Source: Candidatus Berkelbacteria bacterium (GTDB lineage: Bacteria > Patescibacteriota > UBA1384 > XYA2-FULL-43-10 > 1-14-0-10-43-13). From it: a stretch of DNA of 64,000 nucleotides. Made by a program: the position numbers and the translations under genes. Positions 462 to 58,991 of the stretch are shown here, one piece after another (the stretch's first letter is position 1; each line of letters begins with the position of its first letter). The notes under the pieces are model-generated. The model searched no databases. It saw only the letters and a program-made list of their open reading frames with translations, and was not told the DNA's origin. The DNA lies in assembly GCA_037143235.1 (NCBI GenBank), contig JBAWZC010000002.1, positions 47,186 through 111,185 of the forward strand, written 5' to 3'.

Positions 462-1019
462 TTATTGACAAGTCGCAGTCTTCCAAAGAGGAAGATTATC
501 AAGCGGAACACTGTTCGGCTGTCCAGCATAGTAACACTTACCATTTGGCGAATTTCCCCCAGAGCCAGTCTCCAGAACTGTAAACAATAGATATGTAGTA
601 TAAAAGGTAGAAGACATCGGTTTATATATATATTTAAGCTTCCAGTCGTTAGATGTTGCGTTTTTATCTCTTTGGTCGACTGGAACGGGGCTTAAGTATT
701 TAGACAAAGAATCGTACAATGTGTGGTCTGTACCATTAGAACCCAGAGTTTTTTCTCCCTGAATATACTGATATTCACCAACGCCAGTGCCATAAAAATC
801 TCCTGCCGAAATAGTATCTAATTTGGGATAAGTCCCGTTTGCCTGTTTGTACATCTCTAACGCTGTGGAGATCTGATCGATATCAGCCTTGCGAGTATTA
901 TCTCGCACCTTTGCCTGTGCACCCGAAGCACTGTATACCACAATGCCGGCCAAGATACCGATGATGGCAATCACGATCATTAGTTCGATAAGCGTAAAAG
1001 CCCGTTTGTATAAATTCAT
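462..1019 (-). CDS. type IV pilin / pseudopilin family protein
   Basis: N-terminus MNLYKRA|FTLIELMIVIAIIGILAGIV is a class III signal peptide with Glu at +5. Size 185 aa. Confidence 0.75.
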   Translation of the reverse strand: MNLYKRAFTLIELMIVIAIIGILAGIVVYSASGAQAKVRDNTRKADIDQISTALEMYKQANGTYPKLDTISAGDFYGTGVGEYQYIQGEKTLGSNGTDHTLYDSLSKYLSPVPVDQRDKNATSNDWKLKYIYKPMSSTFYTTYLLFTVLETGSGGNSPNGKCYYAGQPNSVPLDNLPLWKTATCQ

Positions 1020-1184: not shown

Positions 1185-1730
1185 CTAAAAATCATCAGAA
1201 AACGCTTTAAAATCAACTACCGGATACTTTTCAAAACTATCGTTCATATATTCTTTACCCTTTTTCCTGACCCACTCGTCGTAACTGGAAAATTCATAGC
1301 TAAATTCCTTTGCAATCCCATGCTTGATTGGGTTTTGATGAATATAATTCAAATGTTTGAAAAAGTCTTCTTCGTCACGAATCACATGGTCGTAATAATT
1401 CCACCATATTTTACGATCAATTACAAAATCAGCTTTGTTGATCGACCGCGAGCTCGCGCCGTTTAACTCGGCAATAAACTTTTTAAGTGTCGATGCGTCT
1501 TTGACCTTTAACAATACATGGTAGTGATTGTGTAATATTGCATAAGCCAGTAGAGAATAATCGAACTTCTTGGTTTTTTCTTTGATAATATTCAGAAGCA
1601 AAGATTTATATTTGTCTGGCTGCAAAAACCACTGCGCATCGACGCATCTACTGGTTATGAAATAAATCGAATTATCATGGATGATGTGCTTAGGACGATT
1701 GGTAAAAGTTGGTTTATATTTCGGCTGCAT
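1185..1730 (-). CDS. rayT: REP-associated tyrosine transposase (IS200/IS605 Y1 transposase family, RAYT)
   Basis: 181 aa. The HuH motif AILHNHYHVLL plus a downstream catalytic Tyr region (WWNYYDHVIRDEEDF) are typical of TnpA_IS200/RAYT. REP palindromes flank it on both sides. Confidence 0.75.
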   Translation of the reverse strand: MQPKYKPTFTNRPKHIIHDNSIYFITSRCVDAQWFLQPDKYKSLLLNIIKEKTKKFDYSLLAYAILHNHYHVLLKVKDASTLKKFIAELNGASSRSINKADFVIDRKIWWNYYDHVIRDEEDFFKHLNYIHQNPIKHGIAKEFSYEFSSYDEWVRKKGKEYMNDSFEKYPVVDFKAFSDDF

Positions 1731-1749: not shown

Positions 1750-1910
1750 CAAACTAAAGTTTGAGCTACATTTTCCCCGCAGCTCAAGCTTTAGCGTGCT
1801 GGGCGGCACACGGTGAACCGTGGTCTACCAGAGCGTACCGCACGCTTTAGCGTGTTTACAACAGCCTGAAGGCTGGGCTACGATCCGTATCTCACGCTTT
1901 AGCGTGCAAT
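1750..1910. repeat. cluster of REP-like palindromes (family A)
   Basis: agctcaagctttagcgtgctgggcggcacacggtgaaccg, cacgctttagcgtgt and cacgctttagcgtgc. The same units recur at 1095-1180, 12181-12270 and 26540-26640. Confidence 0.6.
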
Positions 1911-2665
1911 TAGAACATCGTATATCCCAAATACAAACCAACAATATAATTTCCCACAAGCAAAGAGATGAAGATAGCCAGCACGAGGAATGGCGCGAAG
2001 GGCACAGAGTCCTGCATCGACTTTCTCTTTAGACCCATCATAATCAGCCCGATAACGCTACCGAGCACAAAAGCCATTAACAATCCCAGCAAGATAACGC
2101 CAGATCCAAGCAAAAAACCCATAATGATGCCGATTTTGATATCACCAGATCCCATCCACTTGCCCTTTGATACCGTCACGATCGCTCCGAGAAATCCGCC
2201 GCCGATCAGACCACCTAGCAACATCTGCCAAACGTCAAAGCCGCCGGCCAAAAAACCAAACACTGAGAGTCCAAGAGCGATCCAAATAAATATTTCTGGT
2301 ACCTCCTCAGTCTTGATATCATGAATAACAGCCACCATCAAGATGGAAAATATGGCTGCATAGTAAAAAGTTGCAACATTTAATCCGAAAAAGTAATACA
2401 GGAGTACAAATACGGCGCCTGTGGATAACTCAACGACAGGATACTGCCACGAAATCGGTTTATTACAATATCTACACCTCGTTTTCAGAATAAAAAAAGA
2501 TAATACTGGTATCAAGTCGTACCACACCAGCTTCGTCTTGCAGTTTGGGCACTCTGAACGGCCAGTCAAGACCGACGCCAGATCATCAGTTCGCAAGACC
2601 AGAACATTTATAAAAGACCCGATAATTAGACCAAAAAGTGCAAATAGGATTAGATTTAATGTCAT
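1910..2665 (-). CDS. pilD: prepilin peptidase (A24 family)
   Basis: 251 aa. N-terminal CPNC...CRYC zinc motif, polytopic membrane profile and a GSGDIKIG motif (GGGDVKL-like). Confidence 0.8.
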   Translation of the reverse strand: MTLNLILFALFGLIIGSFINVLVLRTDDLASVLTGRSECPNCKTKLVWYDLIPVLSFFILKTRCRYCNKPISWQYPVVELSTGAVFVLLYYFFGLNVATFYYAAIFSILMVAVIHDIKTEEVPEIFIWIALGLSVFGFLAGGFDVWQMLLGGLIGGGFLGAIVTVSKGKWMGSGDIKIGIIMGFLLGSGVILLGLLMAFVLGSVIGLIMMGLKRKSMQDSVPFAPFLVLAIFISLLVGNYIVGLYLGYTMF

Positions 2666-3458: not shown

Positions 3459-4688
3459 TTACGCTCCCGCGCTGCCGGCAATACTGTATATGGGCAACAA
3501 GATAGAAAAGACGAGAAACGCCACCGCAGCACCGATGATAACCAAGACGACAGGCTCTACGAGAGTACTAATAATCTTGATATTCTCCTCTGAATTCTCT
3601 TCGTAATAAATGGCTACTTTATCTAAGATCTTGCCAAGCTCACCCGTTTCTTCACCAACAGACATCATCTGTGACAAAAGTACTGGAAAAACAGGGTCCT
3701 TGGACATCTGCACAGATAGCGGCACACCTTTTTCGACTTGTTGCGACGCAAGCACGATCGCCTCTTCGTAAATAACATTGTTCATAATAGTCGCACCGAT
3801 CTTCAAAGCATCTAACAGAGGTACGCCAGCCTCAATCAGCATCGCCATCACTCGAGAGAACCTTGTCATCGCTACATTTTCCGTCATCTGACGAAGTCCT
3901 GGCATCTCGAGCTCAAACCTATTCCACCACCTAGCCCCAGACTCAGACGAGAGCCAGAAACGAACCAAAAGAAATATAACCAATAGACCAAGAATCACTA
4001 CCCACCAATACGAAGCCATAAAGCCGGACATCGCCAGCAAGATCTGAGTTGAGATCGGCAAAGCCTTGCCAGACTGTTCGAAAACGGTCGCTAACTTTGG
4101 CACGACCGATGCCATCATATAAGTACCAATCAGGAGCATAACGATCAAGATAAAGGCAGGATAGTAAAGTGCACCACGAACCTTGGACATAAAGTTGTGA
4201 TCAGCCTCGAGTTTCTTGGATAACTGATCAAGTACCACATCAAGCTTACCAGTGCTTTCACCAGAAGCAACGATGCTGATATAAAGTCGATCAAAAACAT
4301 CCGGATGTTTTGCGAGTGCGCCAGAAAGATTGAAACCTTCTTCCAGGTCCTTATAGACTTCCAGAAAAATACTCTTTAGATATGGTTTTGCCGCCTGAGC
4401 TGCCAACATACTGATTGCTTTGGTCAGAGAGATACCAGAAGACAACATCGTTGCCAACTGACGAGAGAATACGGCTTTTTCCTTGACAGAGACAGTCGGC
4501 TTGAACCAATTGTCGACTTTCAATATCTTGTGCTCGAGCATCATATTGACCGGCACTAGATTGTGTCGTATTAATACACTCTCAGCGAGAGACTGATTTT
4601 CAGCGCTGACTGAGCCAGTAACTATTTCACCCTGCTCGTTTTTTGCTTTGTATAAAAACTTTGTCATAACTATCCTCCATGGTTTCAT
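3459..4688 (-). CDS. pilC: type IV pilus inner-membrane platform protein PilC (GspF family)
   Basis: 409 aa with two T2SSF-like repeats and three TM segments. Syntenic with pilT and pilB. Confidence 0.8.
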   Translation of the reverse strand: MKPWRIVMTKFLYKAKNEQGEIVTGSVSAENQSLAESVLIRHNLVPVNMMLEHKILKVDNWFKPTVSVKEKAVFSRQLATMLSSGISLTKAISMLAAQAAKPYLKSIFLEVYKDLEEGFNLSGALAKHPDVFDRLYISIVASGESTGKLDVVLDQLSKKLEADHNFMSKVRGALYYPAFILIVMLLIGTYMMASVVPKLATVFEQSGKALPISTQILLAMSGFMASYWWVVILGLLVIFLLVRFWLSSESGARWWNRFELEMPGLRQMTENVAMTRFSRVMAMLIEAGVPLLDALKIGATIMNNVIYEEAIVLASQQVEKGVPLSVQMSKDPVFPVLLSQMMSVGEETGELGKILDKVAIYYEENSEENIKIISTLVEPVVLVIIGAAVAFLVFSILLPIYSIAGSAGA

Positions 4689-5953: not shown

Positions 5954-6210
5954 AGCGTCATTAATTCAATATAAAAGTAATTGTTTGACCCTTCCGTAGC
6001 TCGAAGAGCGAAGGAGGGCTTAATTCAATTTGCAAGTCTGTTCTCCACAAGGTCGAACCATAACTTTTTATTCTTCGAGCGAGTCTGACGAGTCGAGAAG
6101 TCCAACTCTGTTCTCGATCCATAAACACCATTTCTGTCTATATATATTCTACTCGAATAGCACTGCACAAGCAAACTATTGGCCTGCAACCGTTTACATA
6201 CAACCACAGA

Positions 6211-8925
6211 TTACACCACTGGAGCATCCTCGCTCTTGTTTTCGACAACAGCTTGAAATATTTCATCGATAGTCGTCTCGCCAGCAAAAGCTTTCAATAT
6301 CCCATCTTGCCGCATCGTCAACATCCCATTTTTGATCGACTGTTCCTTGATCTCGTTTGCTGGCCTTTTCCCGATTGCCAACTCTTCGATCTCGGGAGTT
6401 ATCTTCATCACCTCATATATGCCCAATCGTCCTTTAAATCCATTGTTACACTCGTCACAACCCTTGCCATAATAGAGTTTCCACTCTTTCGGAAATCGAG
6501 CCCTGTCCTCAACGTTTTGTGGTGAAATTTTGTCTAACTCGCCCTTGATCTGTTCCATTAGCTTCTCAGGAACTTTCATCTCCTGCTTACATTTCGGACA
6601 GATACGACGCACTAGACGCTGTGCGATAATCAAATTAATCGCCGAAGTAATCAAAAATGGTTCTATGCCCATATTGATCAAGCGTGGTAGGGCTCCAGCA
6701 GTATCATTTGTATGTAAAGTCGAAAGCACTAGGTGGCCAGTCAATGCAGCGTGTGTAGCCATATTTGCAGTCTCAGAGTCACGAATCTCACCAACCATAA
6801 TAATATTCGGGTCTTGTCGCAAAACGCTGCGAAGACCAGAAGCAAAGGTAAAACCAATCTCCGGCTTGACCTGACACTGGTTTATGCCAGCAATTTCGTA
6901 TTCAACAGGATCTTCAAGCGTAATTACATTCACCCCAGGGACGCTAATGCGGTTTAGAATAGCGTAAAGAGTTGTTGATTTACCCGAACCCGTCGGACCA
7001 GTCGCAAGAATGACCCCAAAAGGCTTACCAATCGCCTCTACCGTATCTTTCTGCGCTGTCCCCATCACCCCAAGATCTTCGAGGGAAAGAATGCTCTGAC
7101 TTTTATCCAAGATCCTCATCACTACTTTTTCACCATGAACGGTCGGCAAGGTCGAAACACGCACATCGACTTCTCTCTTGTTGAAAACAACATCGAAACG
7201 GCCATCTTGCGGAATTCTCATCTCATCAATTTTGAGCTTGGAAAGAATCTTGATACGACTGACAAAGGGCGGATGAAACGATAGAGGGAGATCAAGCGCC
7301 TCTTTCATCACACCATCAACACGACACCTGATACGCAGAGACTTCACCAGAGGCTCAACATGAATATCCGAGGCTCGCGTTGTCAAGGCATAGTTTATAA
7401 CCGAAGCAACAATCTTGGGGATATAGCCACCTTTGCAAGACTCAGCCAGCATCTTTTCGTCCCTGATATCTTCTTTGACCAAAGATCCGATATCTTCATT
7501 TGCAAGGCCAGAGGCATCGCGAGCCTGCGACTCAGTGTCCAAGATTTGAGGCGCAGACGAAACAGCTGTATCTTCAACTTTCGCAGGCTGATCAGCTTGA
7601 CTAGTCAACAGACCACCATTTTGATTTATTTTCTGATCATTTTCAGTTGATCCCTGTTCTATTCCTTCTGACTCCTGCTTGCCCCGCGTAGCCTCGGCGG
7701 AGTGGGGATTACCAGACTTATCCACAGATTCTAGTTTTTGTTTACCAGACTTATTATTATCAGAATTATCAACCAAATCACTAGTCCCATTTTCAATATT
7801 GGTAACTTTAATACCAGCCGCCTGCAAACTTTCTTTGTCGCCGGCTCGAATACCCTCAGCAATCTGATCACGCTTTTGCTGCTGCGAAGGATCTATTGCA
7901 AGAGTATTTTTTATTTGATCGTCTTTTTTCGGAGTCGATATATCATCGATCGTCATCTCTGCTCTTTCGTTGACACCGAGCAAGCTTCCAACCATACTCT
8001 TAAATGACACCGCATCGCCACCCTTCGGTGCACTTTCTACCATAGGAGGGCTACTTGTCTCAACTTTTTCAATCTTATCAACCGTAAAATCAGGCAGATT
8101 TTGAATTGACTCACCCTTCTGCACAGTTTTTGATTCTGGGGACTGACTCAATTCCTTCAGTTTTGTTACCACAAAATCAATATCAGACCTAGATGTCGCA
8201 AAGAGCTCAACCTTAATATTATTTTCCTGACGTAATGACTGAACTATTTTCAAGGTTCTAGCATCATCAGGTTTCTCGCAAGCCAATAAATATTCTCCTG
8301 CTTGGTTTTGACCAATGACGACCACACGATTCTTTTCAATGAAATCCAAAGGCAATTTGTGAATATATTTCTCTGCAATCGCTTGATTTTGCAGGTACAC
8401 CACCGGCAAACTACCTTTTTTCAGTAAAGACTTGTTAGATTTTGGGGGGCGATATTGTTTTACGGCTTCGCTAAAATCAGTTTCACCCGTGACAAATAAT
8501 TCAATCTCGACTCCTTTTTTGTCAAAGAAATCGAGCAAACCAGTCTTGAAACCAACTAGCATATCTGCTGGATGAGCGACGGCTAGGCGAAGCAAGTTGT
8601 CAGTAAACGCAAAAGGTATTGCACCATATTTTCTGGAAATATTCTCGGGAAATATTTTCCTCGCCTCCACAGGGATCAAAACATTTTTCAGCTCGATATA
8701 AGGTAATTTAAGTAAAATACCATAGGCTTTGTTGATCGAGTCACGGGTCACTAGATTATTTTTTACCAAAAAGGTCTCAAGTTCGCGGTTGGTCTTGAAC
8801 ATCGTTCGCAAAGTGGATGCATCGTCCTGATCAATCACATTTTGCAACACAAAAACATCCAAAATAGACTGTGTTGACACAGCCTGCGGCAGATATCTTA
8901 AATTTGATTTGACAATATCGGCCAT
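6211..8925 (-). CDS. pilB: type IV pilus assembly ATPase PilB/GspE with an unusually long acidic low-complexity insert
   Basis: 904 aa. The C-terminal ~420 aa hold Walker A GPTGSGKST, a His box and the tetracysteine CPKC...CDEC. The N-terminal MshEN-like region is followed by a ~220-aa Ser/Glu/Asp/Gln-rich segment. Confidence 0.8.
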   Translation of the reverse strand: MADIVKSNLRYLPQAVSTQSILDVFVLQNVIDQDDASTLRTMFKTNRELETFLVKNNLVTRDSINKAYGILLKLPYIELKNVLIPVEARKIFPENISRKYGAIPFAFTDNLLRLAVAHPADMLVGFKTGLLDFFDKKGVEIELFVTGETDFSEAVKQYRPPKSNKSLLKKGSLPVVYLQNQAIAEKYIHKLPLDFIEKNRVVVIGQNQAGEYLLACEKPDDARTLKIVQSLRQENNIKVELFATSRSDIDFVVTKLKELSQSPESKTVQKGESIQNLPDFTVDKIEKVETSSPPMVESAPKGGDAVSFKSMVGSLLGVNERAEMTIDDISTPKKDDQIKNTLAIDPSQQQKRDQIAEGIRAGDKESLQAAGIKVTNIENGTSDLVDNSDNNKSGKQKLESVDKSGNPHSAEATRGKQESEGIEQGSTENDQKINQNGGLLTSQADQPAKVEDTAVSSAPQILDTESQARDASGLANEDIGSLVKEDIRDEKMLAESCKGGYIPKIVASVINYALTTRASDIHVEPLVKSLRIRCRVDGVMKEALDLPLSFHPPFVSRIKILSKLKIDEMRIPQDGRFDVVFNKREVDVRVSTLPTVHGEKVVMRILDKSQSILSLEDLGVMGTAQKDTVEAIGKPFGVILATGPTGSGKSTTLYAILNRISVPGVNVITLEDPVEYEIAGINQCQVKPEIGFTFASGLRSVLRQDPNIIMVGEIRDSETANMATHAALTGHLVLSTLHTNDTAGALPRLINMGIEPFLITSAINLIIAQRLVRRICPKCKQEMKVPEKLMEQIKGELDKISPQNVEDRARFPKEWKLYYGKGCDECNNGFKGRLGIYEVMKITPEIEELAIGKRPANEIKEQSIKNGMLTMRQDGILKAFAGETTIDEIFQAVVENKSEDAPVV

Positions 8926-8998
8926 CCCCTCCCGAACATCATTAATTCAATATACAAGTCAGTTCTCGGAATAACGAACGTTTCTTCCATTATTTTTT

Positions 8999-9178
8999 GT
9001 CATTGCGAGGAGTCTGCGACGAAGCAATCTATCATTTAGTCTATTCTCGACAAGCTCGAACCATAACCGTTTACTCTTCAAAAAATGAAAAATGATCTTT
9101 GGAACAAATCTTGCTAGCTGAGAAGTAATGATAGATTGCCACGAGCCGAACGAACAGATCGGCTCTCGCAATGACAAG
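8999..9178. mobile_element. MITE-like element with ~40-nt terminal inverted repeats (TGTCATTGCGAG ... CAATCTATCATT)
   Basis: Left arm tgtcattgcgaggagtctgcgacgaagcaatctatcatt. The right arm is its inverted counterpart, aatgatagattgccacgagccgaacgaacagatcggctctcgcaatgaca. A solo arm lies at 12271-12312. Confidence 0.5.
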
Positions 9179-9243: not shown

Positions 9244-9507
9244 TTATAGTCCAGTAAAAGGATTGGTCCGTCCTACGCCTTCTGTAGGCGCAGCCAATGG
9301 CATACCCACCAAATTCTGCCTGCCAGTCATAATTTTATCAACTTGCGTCTTGTAGCTGTTTATATCAATAGTTGCGTAATCATCAGATGCAGGAGTCACT
9401 TCGGAAACCGCAATAGCATTTGACCATGACCAGAAAAACCCAATCGCCACGACGGCAACAAAAACCAAAGTAATGATTAGGGGTGTCTGCTTTTTTATAT
9501 CGTTCAT
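9244..9507 (-). CDS. small membrane protein in the pilus locus (possible PilP-like)
   Basis: 87 aa with one N-terminal TM helix. Lies between the PilO-like gene and pilB. Confidence 0.4.
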   Translation of the reverse strand: MNDIKKQTPLIITLVFVAVVAIGFFWSWSNAIAVSEVTPASDDYATIDINSYKTQVDKIMTGRQNLVGMPLAAPTEGVGRTNPFTGL

Positions 9508-9527: not shown

Positions 9528-10052
9528 TTATCTTGTGTAAGTTTTCAGCCCAATCGTTGCTGACATACCGGTGTCAGTTGATGACATCGTGATATTATCG
9601 ATAGTCATAAACTTAACATCTTTTTCGATAGACTTGACCAATGCGTTGATCGCCTCGAACGAACCATTGACGGTGAAGCCAAGAGTTACGGCGTCACTTG
9701 AAGCTGTAGCATCAGCACTAGCAGTTTCGCCAGATATTTGGATGGACGGTATGACAAGCTTTTGAGCAGAAGCCAAAGCCTCAATCTCAGCAATAGTATT
9801 TTCGGTATCAGATCCCTGGGCAACCGCGACCAAAGTGTTCGTAACCAGATCTTTGTTGTTGGCAATCGCAGCCTTGGTCTGAACCAAAGAATTGTATTTA
9901 TCTTGAGCCATTTTCACTTCATCGCTAATCCGATCAATATCTGCAGCCTTTGACTTATAGCCGCCAAAGCCAGAAACATAACAGTAAGCCCATGAAGCCA
10001 CGATGATCAAGACAGCAAAGACGATCGAAAAATAAGAATTATCGCGTTTCAT
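9528..10052 (-). CDS. PilO-like pilus assembly protein
   Basis: 174 aa with N-terminal TM, a coiled-coil and a periplasmic domain. Its stop overlaps the next gene's start. Confidence 0.45.
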   Translation of the reverse strand: MKRDNSYFSIVFAVLIIVASWAYCYVSGFGGYKSKAADIDRISDEVKMAQDKYNSLVQTKAAIANNKDLVTNTLVAVAQGSDTENTIAEIEALASAQKLVIPSIQISGETASADATASSDAVTLGFTVNGSFEAINALVKSIEKDVKFMTIDNITMSSTDTGMSATIGLKTYTR

Positions 10053-10711
10053 ATTGCCTCCCCTGTCGCAAAGCTAGCTTTGCCGCTAATAGTAAATTTA
10101 AAGGAACTATTCTTGCCTTCAAGATCGTTACTGACCGAACCGATAGTAACTCCAGACAACTTATTCCAAGTCATCAAGGTCAGTGATTCATCAGCAATCG
10201 AACGATAATTCTTGGTCACACCGTCAAAGCTAAAGGTACCATCAGATGCCAAGGCCAGATTTTTTACCTGTATGCTAGAATTGACCTTGAGATAAAAACC
10301 ATCAAGAAATGTCCCGACTGAGACCGTTTTGTTGTTGGCATCGATCAGTTTGGTCGCAGCCAATTTAAAATCTTTGGCTTGCTTTTCAACTGCAGCATAG
10401 TCTGAACTGTTGATACTTTGAACGACATCGTTTCTCTCGTTTGTTTTGGCAGCGATATCTTGATCAAGGGACCTATTCATAAAATAAAGACCGCCAACGA
10501 CAACAAGAGAAAAAGCAGTAGTTATCCACAGGATGATGACCGGCCAATTGGTCGATTCCTTACTAACCTCGAACTGCAAATCTTCCAAGACACTATCTTT
10601 GCTCGATGTTGTCTTTTTTTCAGGAATAGGCATCGGCGAAGTTGTGTTTGGTTTGCTATTATCGCTACCAAAACTGCTACCGAAGCCACCATTGTTTTTT
10701 TCTGGTTCCAT
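10049..10711 (-). CDS. PilN-like pilus assembly protein
   Basis: 220 aa with a low-complexity cytoplasmic N-terminus, a single TM (WPVIILWITTAFSLVVVGGLYF) and a periplasmic domain. Confidence 0.45.
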   Translation of the reverse strand: MEPEKNNGGFGSSFGSDNSKPNTTSPMPIPEKKTTSSKDSVLEDLQFEVSKESTNWPVIILWITTAFSLVVVGGLYFMNRSLDQDIAAKTNERNDVVQSINSSDYAAVEKQAKDFKLAATKLIDANNKTVSVGTFLDGFYLKVNSSIQVKNLALASDGTFSFDGVTKNYRSIADESLTLMTWNKLSGVTIGSVSNDLEGKNSSFKFTISGKASFATGEAI

Positions 10712-10992: not shown

Positions 10993-12168
10993 CTAGTTAG
11001 TATTTCCCACTTCCCCGCTACTAAGTCCTGAAATATTTCTAAATCCTGGCGGCTGCAAGCTATCAAGCTTCGTGTCGTACAAGATTTGGATGTTGTTTTT
11101 GACAGGAAAATCGAAAGAATTCGCTATATAGAATCCAGTCAATTTATTATTATTATAGATTTTAATCGTCCCACCAGCGCCATAGGCACTACTCTTGATC
11201 GCCATGATTGGCGCTTTTATCTCACAACCAGCCTCTATAGTCACATCACCGTAGACAATAAAACCGAGCGCAGCTGTTGACGAAGTCGGTAAAATTTTTG
11301 AGCCAGTCCTGAACCTCATATTACCATTCACAATGATTATACCCTGACCAGAATAATTTTTTTCAATATTTTTAAGATTAGGAGCAATTGACGACGAATT
11401 TATCACAACATCGCCATCCACTGTCCAAACCTTTCCCTCTGGATATTTGAAAGTCTCATCAGCAGAGCTAGGGAGTGAAATTGTTTTTTTCTGCAATTCC
11501 CACGGACCAGTAGAGATCGCTGCAAGATTCGTAAGATCTATATCAGCCCCTTCTCCTTTTAGAGTATTAATCTTAGCCACATTTGCATCGTCATCCTTCC
11601 CGTTCCAATACGCCATTGATTTTGAGTCAATGTTATAACTGCCCATGCCCCAAGTTTCGCCATTGCTGCCGTTAGGAGTAATACTGTTTCTCGACTGCGC
11701 CAAAGCTTTGCCCCAATAAGTGAAATTACTATAATCAGTCGAGTAAGTATCCCCGATCACATTGATACCGCCGAGAAAAAGTGCCGGCAACTCATACATC
11801 ACAGTCCCACCGACCGTGGTGCGACTGGTCATCAGTCGTGTTGAACTACTAATGTTCCCGCCTGTCCCATTAGATCCCGTGCCAATGATAAAACAAACAG
11901 GTGAGGCATTGATCAAAATTCCACAATCGTCATCGGTCAATCTTGTAGTATCAAATCCATAACTTGAGTTCGGTTCACCATTGAAAATGGCATAGTTCCC
12001 CGTCATCCCGCCATAATATGTATTTCCCCCACTCACCACCGTTGTCTGCCCGACCATCATATCGGGCAAGACCGACTCAGCGAAAACTTGAAAAGGAAAA
12101 ACAAAAACAAACGCGACAAGGCCAATCGCCGTGAAAGAAACTAAGATTTTAGAATACATTTTTCGCAT
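10993..12168 (-). CDS. secreted protein of unknown function (candidate pilus-associated/adhesin)
   Basis: 391 aa with a signal peptide (ILVSFTAIGLVAFVFVFPFQVFA), Gly/Ser/Thr/Asn-rich composition and no recognisable catalytic motifs. Confidence 0.5.
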   Translation of the reverse strand: MRKMYSKILVSFTAIGLVAFVFVFPFQVFAESVLPDMMVGQTTVVSGGNTYYGGMTGNYAIFNGEPNSSYGFDTTRLTDDDCGILINASPVCFIIGTGSNGTGGNISSSTRLMTSRTTVGGTVMYELPALFLGGINVIGDTYSTDYSNFTYWGKALAQSRNSITPNGSNGETWGMGSYNIDSKSMAYWNGKDDDANVAKINTLKGEGADIDLTNLAAISTGPWELQKKTISLPSSADETFKYPEGKVWTVDGDVVINSSSIAPNLKNIEKNYSGQGIIIVNGNMRFRTGSKILPTSSTAALGFIVYGDVTIEAGCEIKAPIMAIKSSAYGAGGTIKIYNNNKLTGFYIANSFDFPVKNNIQILYDTKLDSLQPPGFRNISGLSSGEVGNTN

Positions 12169-12315: not shown

Positions 12316-14064
12316 TCATTCCACCCTACACTGATACGACACGGTCGCCTTGTGAGTAGTGGCGTTCTGGGGAATATCGGAAAAAGTGACCTGACTACTT
12401 AATGCGGGGAAAGTTGCAGCCGCGCCAAATTCAGAACCGTTTACACCCCTACAAATATGCGCATTCGCTCCCTTTGTTACCAAATATTCGTCCGTCAAGG
12501 TATCTAGCGTCCCCGTCATATTTGAGATCTCAATCTTCACTATTATTACATCACCCATCTGTAAAGAATAAGGATTAAACGGAGTTGTCGCTGCAGGAAC
12601 ACCGTTTCGACTCACTGGCTCAAGTGTTTTCTTGATCGAAAGCCCCGCTGGCTTGCCATTGATGACGATAATACCGCCACCACCAGGAGCATCATATTCT
12701 CTTGTGAAAGCCGAACTACCCCCATTAGCTGTAATATTTGCCGCAGCAGTAGGGACTGTATTTTTCCCTAAAACATCGTTATCTGTGCCAGCAATAGTCT
12801 TAGGATTGCCAACTTGACTTGACAACTCTTGACGAATAACATTGCTAATTGTGACAGAGCCAGCCCCCGCATTCGCAGGAGAATCATCAACTACGCCGGC
12901 GCCAGCCAACACAGCGCCACTGGTTAGAGTTCCAGTAAGATTAATGCTAATTGTTCCTCCTGCTCCACCGCCACCAGATGATTGTGAGTCTCCACAACTC
13001 CCACCATTTCCAGCAGCTCCGTCTGCAGAAATAAACGAATTAGCCGAAACACTTAATCTATTGGCACTAAGAAATATCTTCCCGCCGCCAGCACCACCAT
13101 AAGCGGAGCCAATACAATCCCAACCAGGAGCATAGCTTGCGCTACCACCACCAGATCCAAAATCAACCGGAGGAGAAACCAAATCATATGTGCCCCCGCC
13201 GACAGCTTTCATATAATCGCTGACCTTGTAAGGATAATCATCTTTATATGTAGTAGATCCACCTTTTCCACCATGGCCACCACCAGAAGCGAACATAGCA
13301 TTTGGATTAAAATTATATCCCGGAACAACCACCGGAGGTTGACCTCCTCCCAAACCATAGCCATCAGGATGTGGTTGAGCTCCTTCTTGGGGTACTTGCT
13401 TGTCACCTCCTGGATACCCCTTGCCGTCAACATCAATCCTACTACTTCCGTATATAGCAATAGTACCACTTACCACAAAATCAACTTTTTTCCAGCGACC
13501 TGTGCCAGTCGTTTGACTGATTGATTTCGCATATACGTTGCCGCTGCCACCAGTAGCCTCCATGTCGGACCGATTTATCGCACTATGTGTTAAAATTGCG
13601 CCATTTTTCAATTCCAAACTATCGAAATGTCTTTGAGTATCACAGGAAGAATCTTGAGTATCGGTATAATCATCGACTTCATCTGGATGATTGTAACATT
13701 CAGTAATTGCACCAGTGACATTATGTTTGACCTTTACTGCATCAGCATAAACTATCGCTTTACCCTCAGGAGCATCCACGCCGTCGATAACAATATTTTT
13801 CCTCTCACAATCAGCAGGAATACCACCCATGTCGTCGTGGCCAGTGACATATTTAATAGTGCATGTTTTCCCATCTCCACTGTAAACGACTTGCGCCAAT
13901 GTCTTCTTCGTCCCCTGACTAACCAAGACTAGAGAGAAAGAAACAAGCAAGATCGCAAGAGCGCCAAAAGAATAAAGACGAATCTTGTGCTGACGAGCAA
14001 AGAACTGTTTGATCGATACTTTAGCCATAGAACCCTCCGAATATATATCAAGTTTATTATACAA
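12316..14064 (-). CDS. glycine-rich membrane-anchored surface protein
   Basis: 582 aa. N-terminal TM anchor and a long Gly-rich repetitive core (GGGHGGKGG, GSGGGSASY, SGGGGAGGT), likely beta-helix-like. Confidence 0.55.
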   Translation of the reverse strand: MYNKLDIYSEGSMAKVSIKQFFARQHKIRLYSFGALAILLVSFSLVLVSQGTKKTLAQVVYSGDGKTCTIKYVTGHDDMGGIPADCERKNIVIDGVDAPEGKAIVYADAVKVKHNVTGAITECYNHPDEVDDYTDTQDSSCDTQRHFDSLELKNGAILTHSAINRSDMEATGGSGNVYAKSISQTTGTGRWKKVDFVVSGTIAIYGSSRIDVDGKGYPGGDKQVPQEGAQPHPDGYGLGGGQPPVVVPGYNFNPNAMFASGGGHGGKGGSTTYKDDYPYKVSDYMKAVGGGTYDLVSPPVDFGSGGGSASYAPGWDCIGSAYGGAGGGKIFLSANRLSVSANSFISADGAAGNGGSCGDSQSSGGGGAGGTISINLTGTLTSGAVLAGAGVVDDSPANAGAGSVTISNVIRQELSSQVGNPKTIAGTDNDVLGKNTVPTAAANITANGGSSAFTREYDAPGGGGIIVINGKPAGLSIKKTLEPVSRNGVPAATTPFNPYSLQMGDVIIVKIEISNMTGTLDTLTDEYLVTKGANAHICRGVNGSEFGAAATFPALSSQVTFSDIPQNATTHKATVSYQCRVE

Positions 14065-34229: not shown

Positions 34230-36389
34230 ATGGGCAAACCGCAGCTATTTGTTCAATCATATTTTTTGGCAACACAGGAAAAAACCCTGGGCAGACATTT
34301 GGCGACTGGTAAAATCCTTTTTAATGATCTTACTGATTCATTTTTCTTTTATTTGATCGAAATTACGCCAGAAACCGCTTTTGACACCGTGATTGAGCGT
34401 ATCATCGTCGATACGATGGAAAGTTTTTCTGACACCTCTGCTGTAAATGAAGCAAGTTTCGAAAAAGTTTTGACCAAGATAAACGCAGGTCTTGGAGAAC
34501 TGGCCGACTCAAGCCAGAGTCATTGGGCTGATCATCTAAATGCTATCGTCGGAGTTGTCGATGGCGACAATATCCTGATCTCTCAATGTGGCAAGATTAT
34601 CGGCTATATTTTTCGCAAAAACCGTATCTCCTCGCTGACAGACAACAGCAAAGTTACCGCCACCGCTCACAGCGTTTTTGATGAAATTATGGCTGGGCAG
34701 ATTGCCACCAACGATCGCATCGTCTTTGGCACCTCCGAATTTTTTGCCCATATCTCACTCGATAGGACGAGAAAACTCGGCACAGACCGCTCTCTGCTGG
34801 AAGACCTCTACTCCATCCAGAAATACTTTCAGCGACAGCGCTCAGCCACCGCCAACGCCATCTTCTTTGAAATTGATTGCTTGCCTGACGAGGTTGAAAC
34901 CAGAACTCTTTTTCTCGACGAACCTGAGATCAGCTCGACTGATATTTTTTGGGCAAAAGCAAAACCAATTTTAACGAAAATTGCCAAAAATATTGCTCTG
35001 GCCAGTGCCTTTCTCTGTAAATACATCGCAATTGGCAGCAAAAAATCCCATGGCTTTATCAAAAAAAGTATTTCACCCAAACTTTCTCACTACACTGGAG
35101 AAATCACCGAGTCAATCAAGAAAAAGTTGCCAAAGATAGACTACTCCGAGCGATTTTCACCACAACGAGCTTTTAACCCGACCGGCATTCGAGTCAAAGG
35201 TGCAAATTATTCTCCCCGAACCAGCAAGAAAAACTTTCTCACCTATGCCTTATTTTATTTCTCATTACTGGGGCTATTATTTGAAAAGAAAAACCGCAAA
35301 TATCTATACGCTACCCTAATAGCCTTGGCAATCATCATCGCTTTCTGCAAGATAACTATCAACAATTCAGAGCGTGGCAAGATCGCCGATCAAGCTGACC
35401 AAACACTCGCCTATGAAAAAGCTTTGACTCTTTACAACTCTGGCAAACAAGATATCGCTCTAGGGAAAACTACCGGCAAAGACCAGCTCAGCCAAGCCCT
35501 GAGCCAAGCCGAGGAAGCCCAGAAAAACAAAGATTACGCCGAGAAAAGTACCGCTCTGATCAAGAGCATCAACCAGGTTTTTGACAAACAAATTGTAGCC
35601 ACTAGAGTCTATACTGACAACGCCAATATCTCCTTACCAGCTGATACAGTTTTTGCGATCAGCGTTGGCAACGATATCTATTCTATCTCCAAAAACAACC
35701 ACATTTTCTCAGGGTCAGCCAATAACTACACTCCGACAGAGATAAAGAATTTCCCTATTTCATCACCACAAATCTCAGCCATCACTTATTCTGGCTATCT
35801 CAACAAAATATTTTTCCATGCAGATGCCAAAATGTTCACCATGGATGTTTCTTCCAAAAGCTTCTCAGAACTAATGATCAGCGATGCCACTAGCTTATGG
35901 GAGACAGCGACAACTTTTGCCAGTTATCGTTCCAGCCTCTACCTTATGGATTCCAACAGCAAAACAATATTTAAGCATGTAGCTGACAACGCAAATTACA
36001 GCAAAGGCCAAGTCTACCTGACAGCTGCCAAAAATACTTTGGCGAACGCCATCGACATCGCTATCGACGGTGATGTCTACCTACTTTATAAAGATGGCTC
36101 AGTCAATAAATATCGTCAAAGCACCCTACTTTCAGAATTTAAATTGCGCAACATCCCCTCTCCAGATTCAGCTATCTCGGGCGCCAGCAAAATCTTTACG
36201 GACGAAGATACCAACAACATCTTTGTGATGGACAAAGCCAAAAATCGCGTCATCGTTTTCGACAAAACTGGCAACTATCAGAAACAATATATTTTAGATA
36301 ATACCGATCTGACCGGTTTTACCGTCAACCCCAAATTACAAAAAATCTGGCTCCTCTCGGGAAACAGATTATTCGAAGCCGGACTATAA
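34230..36389 (+). CDS. bitopic membrane protein with N-terminal PP2C-like (PPM) phosphatase-like domain and large extracytoplasmic C-terminal domain
   Basis: 719 aa. NAIVGVVDGDNILISQCGKIIGYIFRKNRISSLTDNS resembles the PPM motif (GDSR...lT.DHS). Two TM helices around residue 340 and a beta-rich C-terminus. Confidence 0.4.
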   Translation: MGKPQLFVQSYFLATQEKTLGRHLATGKILFNDLTDSFFFYLIEITPETAFDTVIERIIVDTMESFSDTSAVNEASFEKVLTKINAGLGELADSSQSHWADHLNAIVGVVDGDNILISQCGKIIGYIFRKNRISSLTDNSKVTATAHSVFDEIMAGQIATNDRIVFGTSEFFAHISLDRTRKLGTDRSLLEDLYSIQKYFQRQRSATANAIFFEIDCLPDEVETRTLFLDEPEISSTDIFWAKAKPILTKIAKNIALASAFLCKYIAIGSKKSHGFIKKSISPKLSHYTGEITESIKKKLPKIDYSERFSPQRAFNPTGIRVKGANYSPRTSKKNFLTYALFYFSLLGLLFEKKNRKYLYATLIALAIIIAFCKITINNSERGKIADQADQTLAYEKALTLYNSGKQDIALGKTTGKDQLSQALSQAEEAQKNKDYAEKSTALIKSINQVFDKQIVATRVYTDNANISLPADTVFAISVGNDIYSISKNNHIFSGSANNYTPTEIKNFPISSPQISAITYSGYLNKIFFHADAKMFTMDVSSKSFSELMISDATSLWETATTFASYRSSLYLMDSNSKTIFKHVADNANYSKGQVYLTAAKNTLANAIDIAIDGDVYLLYKDGSVNKYRQSTLLSEFKLRNIPSPDSAISGASKIFTDEDTNNIFVMDKAKNRVIVFDKTGNYQKQYILDNTDLTGFTVNPKLQKIWLLSGNRLFEAGL

Positions 36390-45436: not shown

Positions 45437-48274
45437 ATGAAACCAAATATTTGGACTAGAGTTATTGCGTTTTTCAAACATCATCCGAAAGTCACTCCCA
45501 AAGACATCAAAACTAAGGCCGGTCGAAAGAAGATCTGGAGAGTAATTTTGATTTGGTCTGTCTACGCCCTGCTGGCTCTGATCATTTTCATAGGTCTGGC
45601 CTTTGTTTGGTTTGCCAAAGATTTGCCCACCCCAAACAATATTGCCAACCGCAAACCGACAATGTCAACCAAGATTTATGATCGCACCGGCACAATCTTA
45701 CTCTACGAGGCCGGCGACCAGAAACGCACTATCATCACCTCTGCCGATATTCCCCAAACAGTCAAAGACGCAACTGTCGCTGCCGAAGACACTCGTTTTT
45801 ATCAACACAACGGTTTCGATACCAGAGGCATTTTCATGGCTCTCTATGAAAAGATTACCGGCAAAACCAGAGTTACGAGAGGCGGATCAACAATCACCCA
45901 ACAATATGTCAAAAATTCGTTTCTGACCGCGGATCGTTCGCTCATTCGCAAATTCAAAGAGCTGATTTTGTCAATCGAACTTGAGGCAATGTATAGCAAG
46001 GACCAAATCCTGACCATGTACCTGAACGAGATTCCTTACGGCAACAACACCGGCGGTATCGAAGCTGCTTCACAGATGTATTATGGCAAACCCGCCAAGG
46101 AACTCGACCTAGCCCAATCTGCTACTTTGGTTGCTATCCCTCAATCCCCAACCAGACTCTCGCCCTACGGCACTCACCTCGATCAATTGGTTGAACGGCG
46201 CAATTATGTCCTAAACCAGATGGTAAAGATTGGTAAAATAACCGTCGAACAAGCAGACGAAGCCAAAAAAGAAGATACAACCACTCTCGGTACAGTTGTG
46301 AAACCGAAACGCGAATCGATGAAGGCACCACATTTTGCAATGTATGTTTTGAATGATTTGGCCGAAAAGTACGGTGACGACAAGATTCAAAAAGAGGGTT
46401 TGAGGGTAGTCACCACGCTCGACATGGACAAACAAAAAGTTGCTGAAGACACAATTGCCAACAACATCAAACAGCTCACTAGTCACGGCGCCAACAATGC
46501 TGCACTAGTTTCCGTCGATCCCAAAACTGGCCAAGTTCTGGCTATGATTGGTTCCAAAAATTACTTCGATACTACCATCGACGGCAATGTAAATGTCGCT
46601 GACTCTCGACGACAACCAGGGTCATCGTGGAAACCAATTGTTTACTCGACCTTGTTTAAAGGTAAATATTCCCCATCAAGCACAATCTTTGACCTCACCA
46701 CTGATTTTGGTGGCGGCTATATTCCCCATGACGCCGACGAGAAAAACCGCGGACCACTTACCGCCAGACAGTCTCTCGCCAACTCTCTAAACATTCCTGC
46801 CATCAAATCAGTCATGGTGGCTGGCATTGACAACACGATCAAGACAGCAGTCGAGCTCGGAATTACTGGCATCGATAGTGCCGCCCAACGCAAAACTTAT
46901 GGTGCATCTTTTGGCATCGGCGTTGCTGAGGTTAAGCCCATCGACATGGCCAACGCTTTTTCGGCTTTTGCTAATGGTGGATACAAGAGCGACATCACCT
47001 CAGTACTTCAAGTTTACGACGCTAATAACAAATTGATCTACGATAACGAAAAAGAAAAAGCTGAACCAAAAAAAGTTCTTGAGCCAGAAATTGCCTACGA
47101 AATTGCCAGCATGATGAGCGATAACGATGCCAGAGCTTTAGTTTTTGGTAGTCGCAGTGCACTTTATTTCCCAGACCGAACAGTCGCCGCCAAAACTGGC
47201 ACCACCAGCGACAACAAAGATGCTTGGACTGTCGGATACACTCCGTCTCTCTCGACTGCAATTTGGGTTGGCAACACCAGAGGAGAACCGATGAAGGTTG
47301 GTACCTTCGGCTCGGATATTGCCGGACCAATCTTTCATCAATTTATGGTTGGGGCTCTAAAAAGTGTTCCAAACGAAGATTTTGTCAAACCTTCCACTAT
47401 CCAAACACTCACTGTCGCCAGATATTCCAATAAGCTGCCAAGTGATACCACGACCGAAACTATTACTGACATTTTTGCCCCTTGGCAGATACCAACCGAA
47501 AAAGACGACTCATTTTCTCGTCTCAATGTCTGTTCCAACGACGGGAAGCTTGCTCCGGCTGGCGCTACTTCTAGCCTGATTGTCGAAAAGATTTTTGCCA
47601 ATATTCACTCCGAGATGCCGAATAACTCAAATTGGGAAAATCCGGTCAGAGGTTGGCTAATCAACGCTGGTTTTGCTCTCGACCCACCAACTGAGACCTG
47701 CGATCTTTCTGCTGTTGCCCCAAGTATTTCCATTACTTCACCGAAAGATCAGTCGACCGTGACAGGCTCGGCAGACATTACTGTGTCGGTAAATACAGCT
47801 ATCTCTGTCAATCAAGTAGAAATTAAGATCGACAATATCTCAGTAGCTACTCTTACTACCGCACCATATAGCGCGACCTACAATTTTGATTCTCTCTCGG
47901 GAGGCAATCACACCATTACTGCTATTATCACCGATGGCTTAAACAAAACCGCTTCAACTTCCATCGCCGTCTCGACGCCAGAAAAAGTCATTCCTATCGT
48001 GATCACAGGAGTCGAGGCAACAAATATTACTGCCACAAGTGCAACTATCAATTGGACGACAAACTCACCAGGAAACTCCCACATCACCTACTGGAAGGTC
48101 ACAGCGCCATCGCAAAAACTTACCGCTGACAGTGAAACACTCACCAAAACACATACCCTGTCGATAGCTAGTCTGTCTGCCGCTGCGACTTATATCTACA
48201 CTGTTGGTTCTACTAACTCACAGGGCACAATCACAAGTCCTGAGAAAAGCTTTACGACACCAGCAACTCTTTGA
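45437..48274 (+). CDS. penicillin-binding protein 1A (bifunctional glycosyltransferase/transpeptidase) with C-terminal Ig/FN3-like extension
   Basis: 945 aa. GT51 motifs (EDTRFYQHNGFD), TPase motifs SSWKP / SLN / KTGTT, and about 250 extra C-terminal residues of beta-rich repeats. Confidence 0.85.
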   Translation: MKPNIWTRVIAFFKHHPKVTPKDIKTKAGRKKIWRVILIWSVYALLALIIFIGLAFVWFAKDLPTPNNIANRKPTMSTKIYDRTGTILLYEAGDQKRTIITSADIPQTVKDATVAAEDTRFYQHNGFDTRGIFMALYEKITGKTRVTRGGSTITQQYVKNSFLTADRSLIRKFKELILSIELEAMYSKDQILTMYLNEIPYGNNTGGIEAASQMYYGKPAKELDLAQSATLVAIPQSPTRLSPYGTHLDQLVERRNYVLNQMVKIGKITVEQADEAKKEDTTTLGTVVKPKRESMKAPHFAMYVLNDLAEKYGDDKIQKEGLRVVTTLDMDKQKVAEDTIANNIKQLTSHGANNAALVSVDPKTGQVLAMIGSKNYFDTTIDGNVNVADSRRQPGSSWKPIVYSTLFKGKYSPSSTIFDLTTDFGGGYIPHDADEKNRGPLTARQSLANSLNIPAIKSVMVAGIDNTIKTAVELGITGIDSAAQRKTYGASFGIGVAEVKPIDMANAFSAFANGGYKSDITSVLQVYDANNKLIYDNEKEKAEPKKVLEPEIAYEIASMMSDNDARALVFGSRSALYFPDRTVAAKTGTTSDNKDAWTVGYTPSLSTAIWVGNTRGEPMKVGTFGSDIAGPIFHQFMVGALKSVPNEDFVKPSTIQTLTVARYSNKLPSDTTTETITDIFAPWQIPTEKDDSFSRLNVCSNDGKLAPAGATSSLIVEKIFANIHSEMPNNSNWENPVRGWLINAGFALDPPTETCDLSAVAPSISITSPKDQSTVTGSADITVSVNTAISVNQVEIKIDNISVATLTTAPYSATYNFDSLSGGNHTITAIITDGLNKTASTSIAVSTPEKVIPIVITGVEATNITATSATINWTTNSPGNSHITYWKVTAPSQKLTADSETLTKTHTLSIASLSAAATYIYTVGSTNSQGTITSPEKSFTTPATL

Positions 48275-51261: not shown

Positions 51262-52071
51262 TTATTTGTAATATACCCAACCATCGATGCGCAGGTCGAC
51301 ATACTCTTTAATATCCGGCCTCTTTTGCGCCAAAACTATTTTCAAATTTTCCAACTGAGAGGCACTCGAACGAGTGGTATCGAATTTTACAAAAAAACCA
51401 GCATCGGTAGACACATTCATATCAAAAGTAGTGTCCTGAATCTCATACTTTATCGGATGAATATTGACTGCATTGAAAAACTGATTATTTAAATTAAGGG
51501 TGAACGCGACAAAATTCGGTGATACAATCTGCGTTGCATTTGATACTGGCAAATTGTGTTTATCTGCGACGAGAATGAGATTTGTATATTTATCAGCAGG
51601 AACCTCGTGTATTATCTCCCCCTGATCGCTCAACAAATAATTCTTACCGGTAGTTTGCCAAACCATCACAGGATTTCTCTCCAAAACAATAACCTTATAC
51701 GCATTTGGAATCCCACGGATCACACGAATATCTTTGATCTCAGACATTTTTTTCAAAATATTTTTTTCAATATCGCCAGTATTTGATAAAAATATATTTT
51801 GCCCTGTAGGAATTTCGGCGCGAATCGCATCAGTTTGAATTAAGACATTGCCCTCAACTATAACATCCGCAACTTTGAAATACGAAGATGTCAGAAAAAA
51901 TACAGAGGCAGAAAGAACCACTACCAAAGCAAAAACCAATTTAATTTTAAAAATCAGCCGACTTTTTTCGCCACCATCGACATTCTTACTCTCTCTTTCA
52001 GTCAACAAAATATTTCGACGACGCGGAATATTTTTATTAACAACTTTTTTGTCCCTCCAGAATCTCATCAC
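51262..52071 (-). CDS. ftsQ: cell division protein FtsQ/DivIB-like
   Basis: 269 aa with an N-terminal TM then POTRA-like and beta domains. Sits directly upstream of the mur genes with a 4-nt overlap. Confidence 0.55.
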   Translation of the reverse strand: MMRFWRDKKVVNKNIPRRRNILLTERESKNVDGGEKSRLIFKIKLVFALVVVLSASVFFLTSSYFKVADVIVEGNVLIQTDAIRAEIPTGQNIFLSNTGDIEKNILKKMSEIKDIRVIRGIPNAYKVIVLERNPVMVWQTTGKNYLLSDQGEIIHEVPADKYTNLILVADKHNLPVSNATQIVSPNFVAFTLNLNNQFFNAVNIHPIKYEIQDTTFDMNVSTDAGFFVKFDTTRSSASQLENLKIVLAQKRPDIKEYVDLRIDGWVYYK

Positions 52072-54271: not shown

Positions 54272-54273
54272 TT

Positions 54274-56455: not shown

Positions 56456-56487
56456 AATTCCTACCTGATTATGAAAATTGGGGTAAA

Positions 56488-58982: not shown

Positions 58983-58991
58983 GGTACCTCG

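Follow-up and report, generated by a model that had tools for sequence, protein, structure and literature searches.

A Berkelbacteria PilB extension ATPase with a duplicated GSPII subdomain and a long linker predicted to be disordered

We analysed the gene of a type IV pilus extension ATPase, PilB, that lies in a stretch of 64,000 nucleotides (nt) from Candidatus Berkelbacteria bacterium (assembly GCA_037143235.1, contig JBAWZC010000002.1). This whole stretch is referred to as the window. Compared to canonical PilB, about 300 amino acids (aa) are inserted in the 904-aa product, of which ~90 form a duplicated domain and ~210 belong to a linker that is predicted to be intrinsically disordered. 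It seems probable that this PilB is an extension motor in which a GSPII adaptor, an acidic disordered tether of ~210 residues, a docking motif and a hexameric ATPase are combined. The original prediction, made from the sequence of the window, had drawn attention to the insert. Our analysis adds the duplicated subdomain, the distribution of the linker across the lineage, a conserved motif within it and a natural fission of the gene.

Domain architecture of the window protein

The open reading frame (ORF) at 6211-8925 is read from the minus strand and begins with an ATG, which is preceded by a strong Shine-Dalgarno-like ribosome-binding sequence (GGGAGGGG). In the 904-aa translation, the Pfam family T2SSE (PF00437) spans residues 500-890 with an E-value (E) of 6.4e-124, and MshEN is matched in two stretches (E 4.9e-17), the better one at residues 72-160. 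The best NCBIfam family was TIGR02538 (type_IV_pilB, the type IV-A pilus assembly ATPase PilB) with 526.9 bits, followed by GspE with 510.7 bits. The score remains under the TIGR02538 equivalog cut-off of 675.65 bits because the N-terminus is divergent and interrupted; the core is not at fault. In a search of the Protein Data Bank (PDB), the closest solved structures were Geobacter PilB and Thermus PilF. Residues 474-894/895 align with residues 169-579 of PDB entry 5ZFR (E ~1e-111), and residues ~160-170 of canonical PilB fall opposite residues ~462-474 of the window protein. This part, the N2 domain and the C-terminal ATPase core (residues 474-895), was modelled by AlphaFold2 with a predicted local distance difference test score (pLDDT) of mostly 70-94. 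The Walker A motif GPTGSGKST is found at residues 643-651, where it is nearly invariant in the homologue alignment, and the two halves of the tetracysteine zinc motif, CPKC and CDEC, at residues 776-779 and 823-826; each of the four cysteines (C776, C779, C823 and C826) is at least 90% conserved. The ORF with its start and strand, both motifs and three peptide strings quoted from the insert (found at about residues 260-280, 409-438 and 463-480) agree with the original prediction. The core, the zinc motif, the GSPII domain and the operon context all place the protein in the PilB family.

The N-terminal half was examined in two AlphaFold2 models, one of the full-length protein based on an alignment of 29 sequences and one of the N-terminal 336 residues based on 18 sequences. 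An N-terminal MshEN-like domain had been proposed originally. This domain is present and complete at residues 19-160, and the region as a whole consists of two folded modules. The first has the four-helix bundle and the alpha/beta subdomain of the MshEN fold; in the latter (residues 72-160) the pLDDT is 81-91 and falls to 61-75 at residues 121-130. In Foldseek searches, for which target-normalised TM-scores (TMt) are given, the best structural match of residues ~19-160 was MshE of V. cholerae (5HTL; TMt 0.78-0.81, root mean square deviation 2.7 Å), a cyclic di-GMP (c-di-GMP) receptor. Further matches of the N-terminal model were GSPII-A and GSPII-B of Thermus PilF, XpsE-N and, in its PilZ-bound form, the N-terminal domain of X. 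citri PilB. The alpha/beta subdomain also matched the GspL-binding N1 domain of EpsE (2BH1 chain X; probability 0.94, TMt 0.63). The second module, here called dom2 (dom1 being the first), comprises residues 171-261. A family hidden Markov model (HMM) built from these residues matches residues 74-160 of the same protein with an E of 3.7e-6, which identifies dom2 as a copy of the alpha/beta subdomain that arose by internal duplication.

The resemblance to MshE does not extend to its ligand-binding motifs. The c-di-GMP consensus consists of two tandem 24-residue motifs, (R/K/L)LGxx(L/V/I)(L/V/I)xxG(L/V/I)(L/V/I)xxxxLxxxLxxQ (PMC11731258). It was not found in the window protein's N-terminal domain, where the best segments reached 5-6 of 11 positions and lie outside the helical bundle. 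The 26 homologues described below scored 5-7 in the same scan, whereas positive controls of canonical type (P0030, P0038, P0055 and P0076) scored 9-10 of 11. Binding of c-di-GMP by this domain is thus unlikely as judged by the missing consensus. The four-helix subdomain is nevertheless very strongly conserved in the family (QSILDVFV.Q, TINKAYSI.LKLPY), and presumably it binds something other than c-di-GMP.

The resulting architecture is unlike that of canonical PilB and unlike the triple-GSPII form of Thermus PilF. Canonical PilB proteins (Geobacter 5TSG/5ZFR, Myxococcus) share with the window protein a single N-terminal GSPII/MshEN domain followed by N2 and the C-terminal ATPase, the Walker A and tetracysteine motifs and an operon with PilT, PilC and PilD, but they are only ~550-590 aa long with a junction of 7-16 aa, compared to which the Berkelbacteria protein has ~300 aa more. 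PilF of Thermus thermophilus (889-913 aa; 6F8L, 8PDK; PMC11731258) is similar in total length, in its GSPII-built N-terminal half and in the matching folds. In PilF, by contrast, three complete, folded GSPII domains follow one another and two of them bind c-di-GMP, whereas the window protein has one complete domain (19-160), one copy that is alpha/beta only (171-261) and a disordered region. The N-terminal half of PilF is dispensable for ATP hydrolysis (PMC11731258).

The linker is predicted to be disordered

Between dom2 and the core, residues 265-472 have a pLDDT below 50 in the full-length AlphaFold2 model, with flanking domains at 80-92. The part of the linker that is covered by the N-terminal model (275-336) is likewise below 50. 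The amino acid composition of the linker (residues 262-473) points in the same direction: the residues FWYILVMC make up 18.9%, compared to 36-38% in the flanking folded parts, and W, Y and C do not occur at all. Ser (11.8%), Lys (9.0%), Asp (9.0%), Glu (8.5%), Gln (8.0%) and Gly (8.0%) are abundant, and 37 acidic residues (D+E) face 24 basic ones (K+R), resulting in a net charge of -13. The linker is therefore predicted to be intrinsically disordered. The original description as an acidic, Ser/Gln/Glu-rich low-complexity insert holds for the acidity and largely for the residues, which are S, K, D, E, Q and G, whereas low complexity was overstated. The Shannon entropy is 3.85 bits compared to 4.0-4.1 bits in the folded parts, the mean local value is 2.99 compared to 3.02, and none of the 12-residue windows of the linker reaches the SEG-type threshold of 2.2 bits or less. 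The suggestion of a disordered linker that might act as a regulatory or interaction module is supported by the pLDDT, the composition, the evolutionary pattern and the embedded motif.

A folded accessory domain of an undescribed family might be missed by Pfam and poorly modelled from a shallow alignment, and the AlphaFold2 alignments held just 29 and 18 sequences. The same alignments are sufficient to fold all flanking domains at pLDDT 80-92, and the low hydrophobic content, the lack of W, Y and C, a mean pairwise identity of 15% and large indels throughout the linker speak against such a domain, which we consider highly improbable. Orthologues of similar length do exist, and none of them has a conserved foldable domain at this position, which is the case that would have refuted the original prediction.

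At the DNA level, the linker does not look foreign. Tandem Repeats Finder and a seed-extension repeat search detected neither tandem nor dispersed repeats in 7507-8142. The GC content of 0.44 lies between those of the two flanks (0.39 and 0.46), and the synonymous codon usage resembles that of the rest of pilB together with pilT and pilC (summed chi-square 32.3, 37 degrees of freedom, p = 0.69). An in-frame insertion of repeat DNA, which had been offered as an alternative in the original prediction, is contradicted by these data and by the presence of the linker in every relative examined. More generally, an insertion of repeat or foreign DNA, or a fusion of two adjacent genes by assembly or annotation, could account for a linker that is compositionally distinct as a protein and for the two-gene form in the sister clade described below. 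Besides the lack of repeats and the native GC content and codons, the reading frame is unbroken in 27 independent assemblies and in ~26 genome loci, most others ending at contig edges, and the two-gene form is derived, not ancestral. These observations leave this explanation hardly credible. An internal translation start that would mimic the split form was also rejected, as no Shine-Dalgarno-like sequence precedes any ATG, GTG or TTG between residues 255 and 500.

The long linker is found throughout the lineage

A protein search yielded 26 further homologues of 775-919 aa, all from Patescibacteria/Berkelbacteria where the source is named, which together with the window PilB form a set of 27 close homologues. 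The alignment to orthologs that had been proposed as a check shows that the insert is conserved in position: all 27 carry a linker at the same place, with a length of 82-230 aa (median 151) and large indels throughout. The mean pairwise identity is 53% in the first domain, 49% in the second domain, 15% in the linker and 70% in the ATPase core. The net charge of the linker is negative in each protein (-3 to -20) and the hydrophobic content is 13-25%.

Scanning one genome per GTDB species with a single protein query found nothing; an alignment query then gave 37 loci in 36 species-level genomes. Their labels are Berkelbacteria, 'Patescibacteria group' or, for bulk submissions, 'uncultured Candidatus Saccharibacteria', and the full-length measurable genes among them have linkers of 73-234 aa. 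A profile of the N-terminal region was also searched against 1.84 billion cluster representatives, resulting in 33 matches with E <1e-30 and 231 with E <1e-10. Junction lengths were compared among 63 representatives at 50% identity that have a dom2-type domain and a complete core. PilB proteins of canonical length (553-594 aa) have 7-16 aa at the GSPII-core junction, and in ~35 of the 63 distant representatives the junction is longer than 60 aa, up to 364 aa. The long junctions are P/S/T-rich, Q/N-rich or K/E-rich. Three of ten long-junction representatives carry a name, and these are Berkelbacteria or Patescibacteria. The long connector of predicted disorder is therefore a trait of the lineage and not a strain oddity. 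What is retained is composition, not sequence.

This pattern also has to be weighed against neutral expansion, in which a permissive connector, serving only to join two domains, grew by drift in small-population, host-dependent bacteria and the conserved patch described below is the remnant of an ancestral secondary-structure element. The hypervariability of the linker, its roughly three-fold variation in length and the different compositions in distant relatives are what drift would produce, and so is the comparison with the closest homologue, which is 68% identical overall and 77-88% identical in dom1 and the core, yet only 26-30% across the linker. The lengths have a floor, however: among more than 60 orthologues none has returned to the canonical 7-16 aa, the minimum being ~73 aa. 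The negative net charge in 27 of 27 homologues is likewise not expected from drift. Together with the behaviour of the motif, these points make neutral expansion rather unlikely in our view.

One Berkelbacteria genome (CAINNR01) contains two paralogous long-linker PilB genes (L001 and L030), with linkers of ~127 and ~89 aa, which suggests two pilus systems. The Saccharibacteria strain TM7x reportedly has two pilus systems as well.

A bipartite motif is conserved within the linker

One island of the linker can be aligned across the family, a bipartite motif at residues ~305-331 (AVSFKSMVGSLLGVNERAEMTIDDIST in the window). Half A is a predicted short amphipathic helix with residues F308, M311, V312, L315 and L316, following the pattern hydrophobic-x-x-hydrophobic-hydrophobic-x-small-hydrophobic-hydrophobic. 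These five positions are hydrophobic in 70-93% of the sequences, the lowest value belonging to position 316. Half B follows after 5-14 residues with the pattern P-x-hydrophobic-T-hydrophobic-[D/E]-x-hydrophobic, which is represented in the window by A322, M324, T325, I326, D327 and I329. Conservation in half B is 78% for P322, 89% for T325, 70% for D327 and 78-96% for the hydrophobic positions. Counting both halves, the hydrophobic class is kept in 78-96% of sequences at seven of eight positions and in 70% at position 316. A small motif HMM built from the 27 proteins gave an E of 0.05 or less in 28 of the 37 loci, a count that is not fully independent as the two sets partly overlap. By eye, the motif was seen in nearly all genome loci, even in lineages that are only 35-40% identical in the N-terminal domains. 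That the hydrophobic pattern and the Thr are kept over such distances is difficult to reconcile with neutral expansion, whereas the failure of AlphaFold2 to dock the motif would be in line with it. The presence of a conserved short motif in a linker of this kind fits an interaction role.

AlphaFold2 predicts a short helix at residues 309-315 with low confidence. Docking of the motif in cis on dom1, dom2 or the core is not supported, as the pLDDT of the motif is ~27-42 in the two models. No patch of the linker is more hydrophobic than half A, whose amphipathicity is moderate, with a mean helical hydrophobic moment of 0.44 compared to 0.25 ± 0.13 for background linker windows; in 9 of 26 proteins it ranks among the three highest windows. 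One could imagine that half A forms an amphipathic helix of the membrane-targeting type known from MinD or FtsA, which would hold PilB at the cytoplasmic membrane, with the disordered region as a leash between membrane and motor; this might make up for a missing PilM. At this position, several clade members have the sequence F-S-L-S-G-L-F-S-G-F-K-x-K, and PilM was found neither in the window nor in syntenic loci, from where it could of course be missing if it is encoded elsewhere in the genome. The helix would be very short (~9-11 residues), its moment is only moderate (0.33 in the window protein, rank 78 of 202), and its flanks are acidic and not basic, which disfavours binding to anionic membranes. 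In addition, half B would be left without a role. We therefore regard membrane targeting as very unlikely.

In a sister clade the gene is naturally split within the linker

In five species-level genomes (L015-L019), the PilB gene is divided inside the linker. In the first ORF (ORF1, 408-434 aa), dom1 and dom2 are followed by a short disordered segment that contains the complete motif and by a third alpha/beta domain, at whose boundary the ORF terminates. The second (ORF2, 511-591 aa) starts with Met and ~10-20 residues, after which come half A of the motif (ISLSGFFDxxF), 60-150 aa of disorder and the ATPase core. The spacing of the two ORFs ranges from overlapping start and stop codons to ~200 nt, and their frames differ in all five loci. 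Recoding of a stop codon can be excluded, since ORF1 and ORF2 are in separate frames, ORF1 stops at a domain boundary and ORF2 begins with Met. The ORF1 architecture was found in five distinct 50%-identity clusters (P0042-P0046).

In a neighbour-joining tree of the ATPase cores, which carries no support values, the split proteins form one clade that is nested in the fused, motif-bearing family and is sister to the group holding the window protein. Because the split clade is nested within the fused family, the fission is derived. The split demonstrates that adaptor and motor can be separated as modules and that, before the cut, the unit made of an alpha/beta domain and the motif behind it had been duplicated. 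It also argues that a covalent linkage between adaptor and motor is not essential. It further argues for half A, since no other element N-terminal to the motor core is conserved, as a good candidate for the contact that joins the two polypeptides. The retention of half A at the extreme N-terminus of the motor subunit is a further point against neutral expansion.

A more far-reaching interpretation is that PilB of this Berkelbacteria lineage is a machine of two parts, an adaptor (the GSPII domain with the extra alpha/beta domains) and a motor, which are joined by the disordered leash. The split form would be held together solely by non-covalent docking between the motif and a dom2-type module, and so would be a two-subunit extension ATPase, for which we found no description; dom2 and the motif would represent a new self-complementing docking unit that possibly replaces PilM-mediated recruitment in an operon without a detected PilM. 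We consider this speculative and unlikely.

Operon and genomic neighbourhood

The pilB gene belongs to a type IV pilus operon on the minus strand, where it is accompanied by PilC, PilT, a prepilin peptidase and pilins (Table 1). The same order of pilus genes was found in two distant relatives (L038 and L039, on contigs of 868 and 972 kb). The IS200-like gene is absent from the corresponding position in both. In both relatives, a PilN-like gene also lies upstream of PilO. The PilN-like protein of the window matched no Pfam or NCBIfam family. A gene of 85-92 aa occurs at the matching position between PilO and PilB in L038 and L039, and the 87-aa protein of the window may be an undescribed small component of the pilus machine.

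PilM is reported to be common in this bacterial group (PMC6744442). No Pfam or NCBIfam match to a PilM/GspL-type protein was obtained among the window ORFs scanned (most of those with at least 150 aa) or in the syntenic loci of L038 and L039; other parts of the genomes were not searched.

Table 1. Positions of the features discussed, in window coordinates unless a locus is named
Feature	Position	Strand	Basis or remark
Pilin	462..1019	-	
IS200-like (Y1) transposase	1185..1730	-	inserted between prepilin peptidase and pilin genes
Prepilin peptidase (PilD)	1910..2665	-	
PilC platform protein	3459..4688	-	T2SSF, E 1.4e-54
PilT-type retraction ATPase, 359 aa	4874..5953	-	immediately downstream of pilB; T2SSE, E 5.5e-52, without MshEN
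PilB-type type IV pilus extension ATPase, 904 aa	6211..8925	-	Pfam, NCBIfam, PDB relatives
Canonical PilB N2 and C-terminal ATPase core, residues 474-895	6241..7506	-	begins at conserved L-x-x-x-D-I-G-S-L; 5ZFR alignment
Tetracysteine zinc motif, CPKC and CDEC	6448..6600	-	translation
Walker A	6973..6999	-	translation; homologue alignment
Acidic linker, predicted disordered, residues 262-473	7507..8142	-	pLDDT, composition, drop in identity
Bipartite motif, residues ~305-331	7933..8013	-	alignment across the family
Second, duplicated alpha/beta GSPII subdomain (dom2), residues 171-261	8143..8415	-	HMM self-match, pLDDT 77-92
Alpha/beta C-subdomain of GSPII/MshEN (N1E-like), residues 72-160	8446..8712	-	Pfam MshEN and fold matches
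Four-helix bundle, residues 19-71	8713..8871	-	AlphaFold2 helices 21-27, 33-42, 46-55 and 61-71; pLDDT 81-91
Membrane protein of 87 aa, between PilO and PilB	9244..9507	-	one hydrophobic span, no family match
PilO/GspM-like protein	9528..10052	-	Pfam PilO and T2SSM_b; NCBIfam GspM, E 1.4e-5
PilN-like bitopic protein	10049..10711	-	position and topology only; one hydrophobic span
Split pair, example, ORF1	5974..7275		locus L016
Split pair, example, ORF2	7482..9116		locus L016

Two further genes lie upstream of the PilN-like gene on the minus strand. The one at 10993-12168 encodes a DUF7305 protein of 391 aa that has a hydrophobic segment at its N-terminus, and a DUF7305 gene is found at the same position in L039. 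The other, at 12316-14064, encodes a 582-aa protein with only a weak AgmC-N-like match. Both proteins may be associated with the pilus tip or with minor pilins. Elsewhere in the window, a 719-aa ORF at 34230-36389 on the plus strand has no Pfam match at E <=1e-4, a class A penicillin-binding protein with C-terminal Big_7 and fn3 domains is encoded at 45437-48274, and 51262-62033 on the minus strand holds a conventional cell-wall and division cluster with FtsQ, MurB, Mur ligases, MurG, FtsW, a MurD-like protein and a penicillin-binding protein transpeptidase.

Discussion

The organization of the Berkelbacteria PilB can be compared to that of GspE/EpsE of the type II secretion system, where the N1 domain, which is small and of alpha/beta type, binds GspL of the platform and is connected by a flexible linker to the N2E-CTE motor. 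In GspE this linker comprises tens of residues, compared to ~210 here. Unlike in that system, neither GspL nor PilM was detected near the Berkelbacteria pilB gene in the window and the syntenic loci. Extension ATPases are distinguished from retraction ATPases by the GSPII/N1 domain, a flexible domain that is believed to make contact with the stator or PilM; the N1 domain of type II secretion binds GspL (PMC11656802).

The nearest described analogue of the linker is the N-terminal disordered region of the Tad pilus motor CpaF. CpaF proteins of classes II and III (PMC12019362) are pilus motors of the PilT/VirB11 superfamily in which a disordered region specific to the lineage likewise precedes the catalytic core on its N-terminal side. 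This region ties an FHA domain, a folded domain that binds proteins, to the motor in class III, and truncation of the N-terminal disordered region lowered pilus dynamics without lowering ATPase activity, for which the authors speculated about protein-protein interactions (PMC12019362). CpaF belongs to another ATPase clade, however, and gives only weak matches to the window protein (E ~1e-5). Its disordered region of ~79 aa is terminal in class II, whereas the Berkelbacteria linker is two to three times longer, internal, acidic and motif-bearing. In the literature on PilB disordered linkers, Patescibacteria and Berkelbacteria we found no account of long connectors, of the motif or of a split PilB, which is not proof of their absence.

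Considering these comparisons, we propose that PilB of Berkelbacteria would work as a protein of three parts: an N-terminal adaptor made of a complete GSPII/MshEN domain without the c-di-GMP motif and the duplicated N1E-like subdomain, the tether, and the hexameric ATPase formed by N2 and the C-terminal domain. N1/GSPII domains of other systems, both type IV pili and type II secretion, are thought to dock on the static membrane platform. By analogy, the adaptor may do the same and so would hold on to the machine, or it may hold on to a regulator. The hexamer of N2 and C-terminal domains drives PilC through a rotary cycle (PMC12019362). The acidic tether would keep this motor at high local concentration near its site and, at the same time, mechanically decoupled and free for its rotary conformational cycle. 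From a rough polymer-scaling estimate, a disordered chain of 212 residues would span ~10-15 nm, which is comparable to the diameter of the hexamer. The motif at residues ~305-331 might make a specific contact, either with a component of the machine or with a dom2-type module of another chain.

Several observations weigh against this proposal. The evidence for disorder is prediction only. PilM, the expected docking partner, went undetected in the window and the syntenic loci, and docking of the N-terminal module on the platform is thus putative. No partner of the motif was identified, and the AlphaFold2 monomer models place it on no domain of the same chain. The copy of the motif in the window protein is somewhat degenerate, with Ala in place of the 78%-conserved Pro322 and Met in place of Phe324. 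Finally, the length of the linker varies about three-fold, so no exact length is needed, which would fit relaxed constraint as well.

In the ultrasmall Patescibacteria (candidate phyla radiation), a central role in host attachment and DNA uptake is ascribed to type IV pili (PMC6744442, PMC11623550), and for all type IV pilus systems it is an open question in which way PilB, through its flexible N-terminal domain, connects the motor with the membrane platform (PMC11656802). The lineage described here lengthens the connector between N1 and the motor to 80-230 residues of predicted disorder, retains one short motif within it and, in one clade, splits the protein there. As a system it is not of a new kind. 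In practical terms, it offers a defined motif and a variant that is split by nature, and each of them can be tested. As a natural dissection of adaptor and motor, these proteins could serve to ask what the N-terminal module and the tether contribute, as has been done for CpaF.

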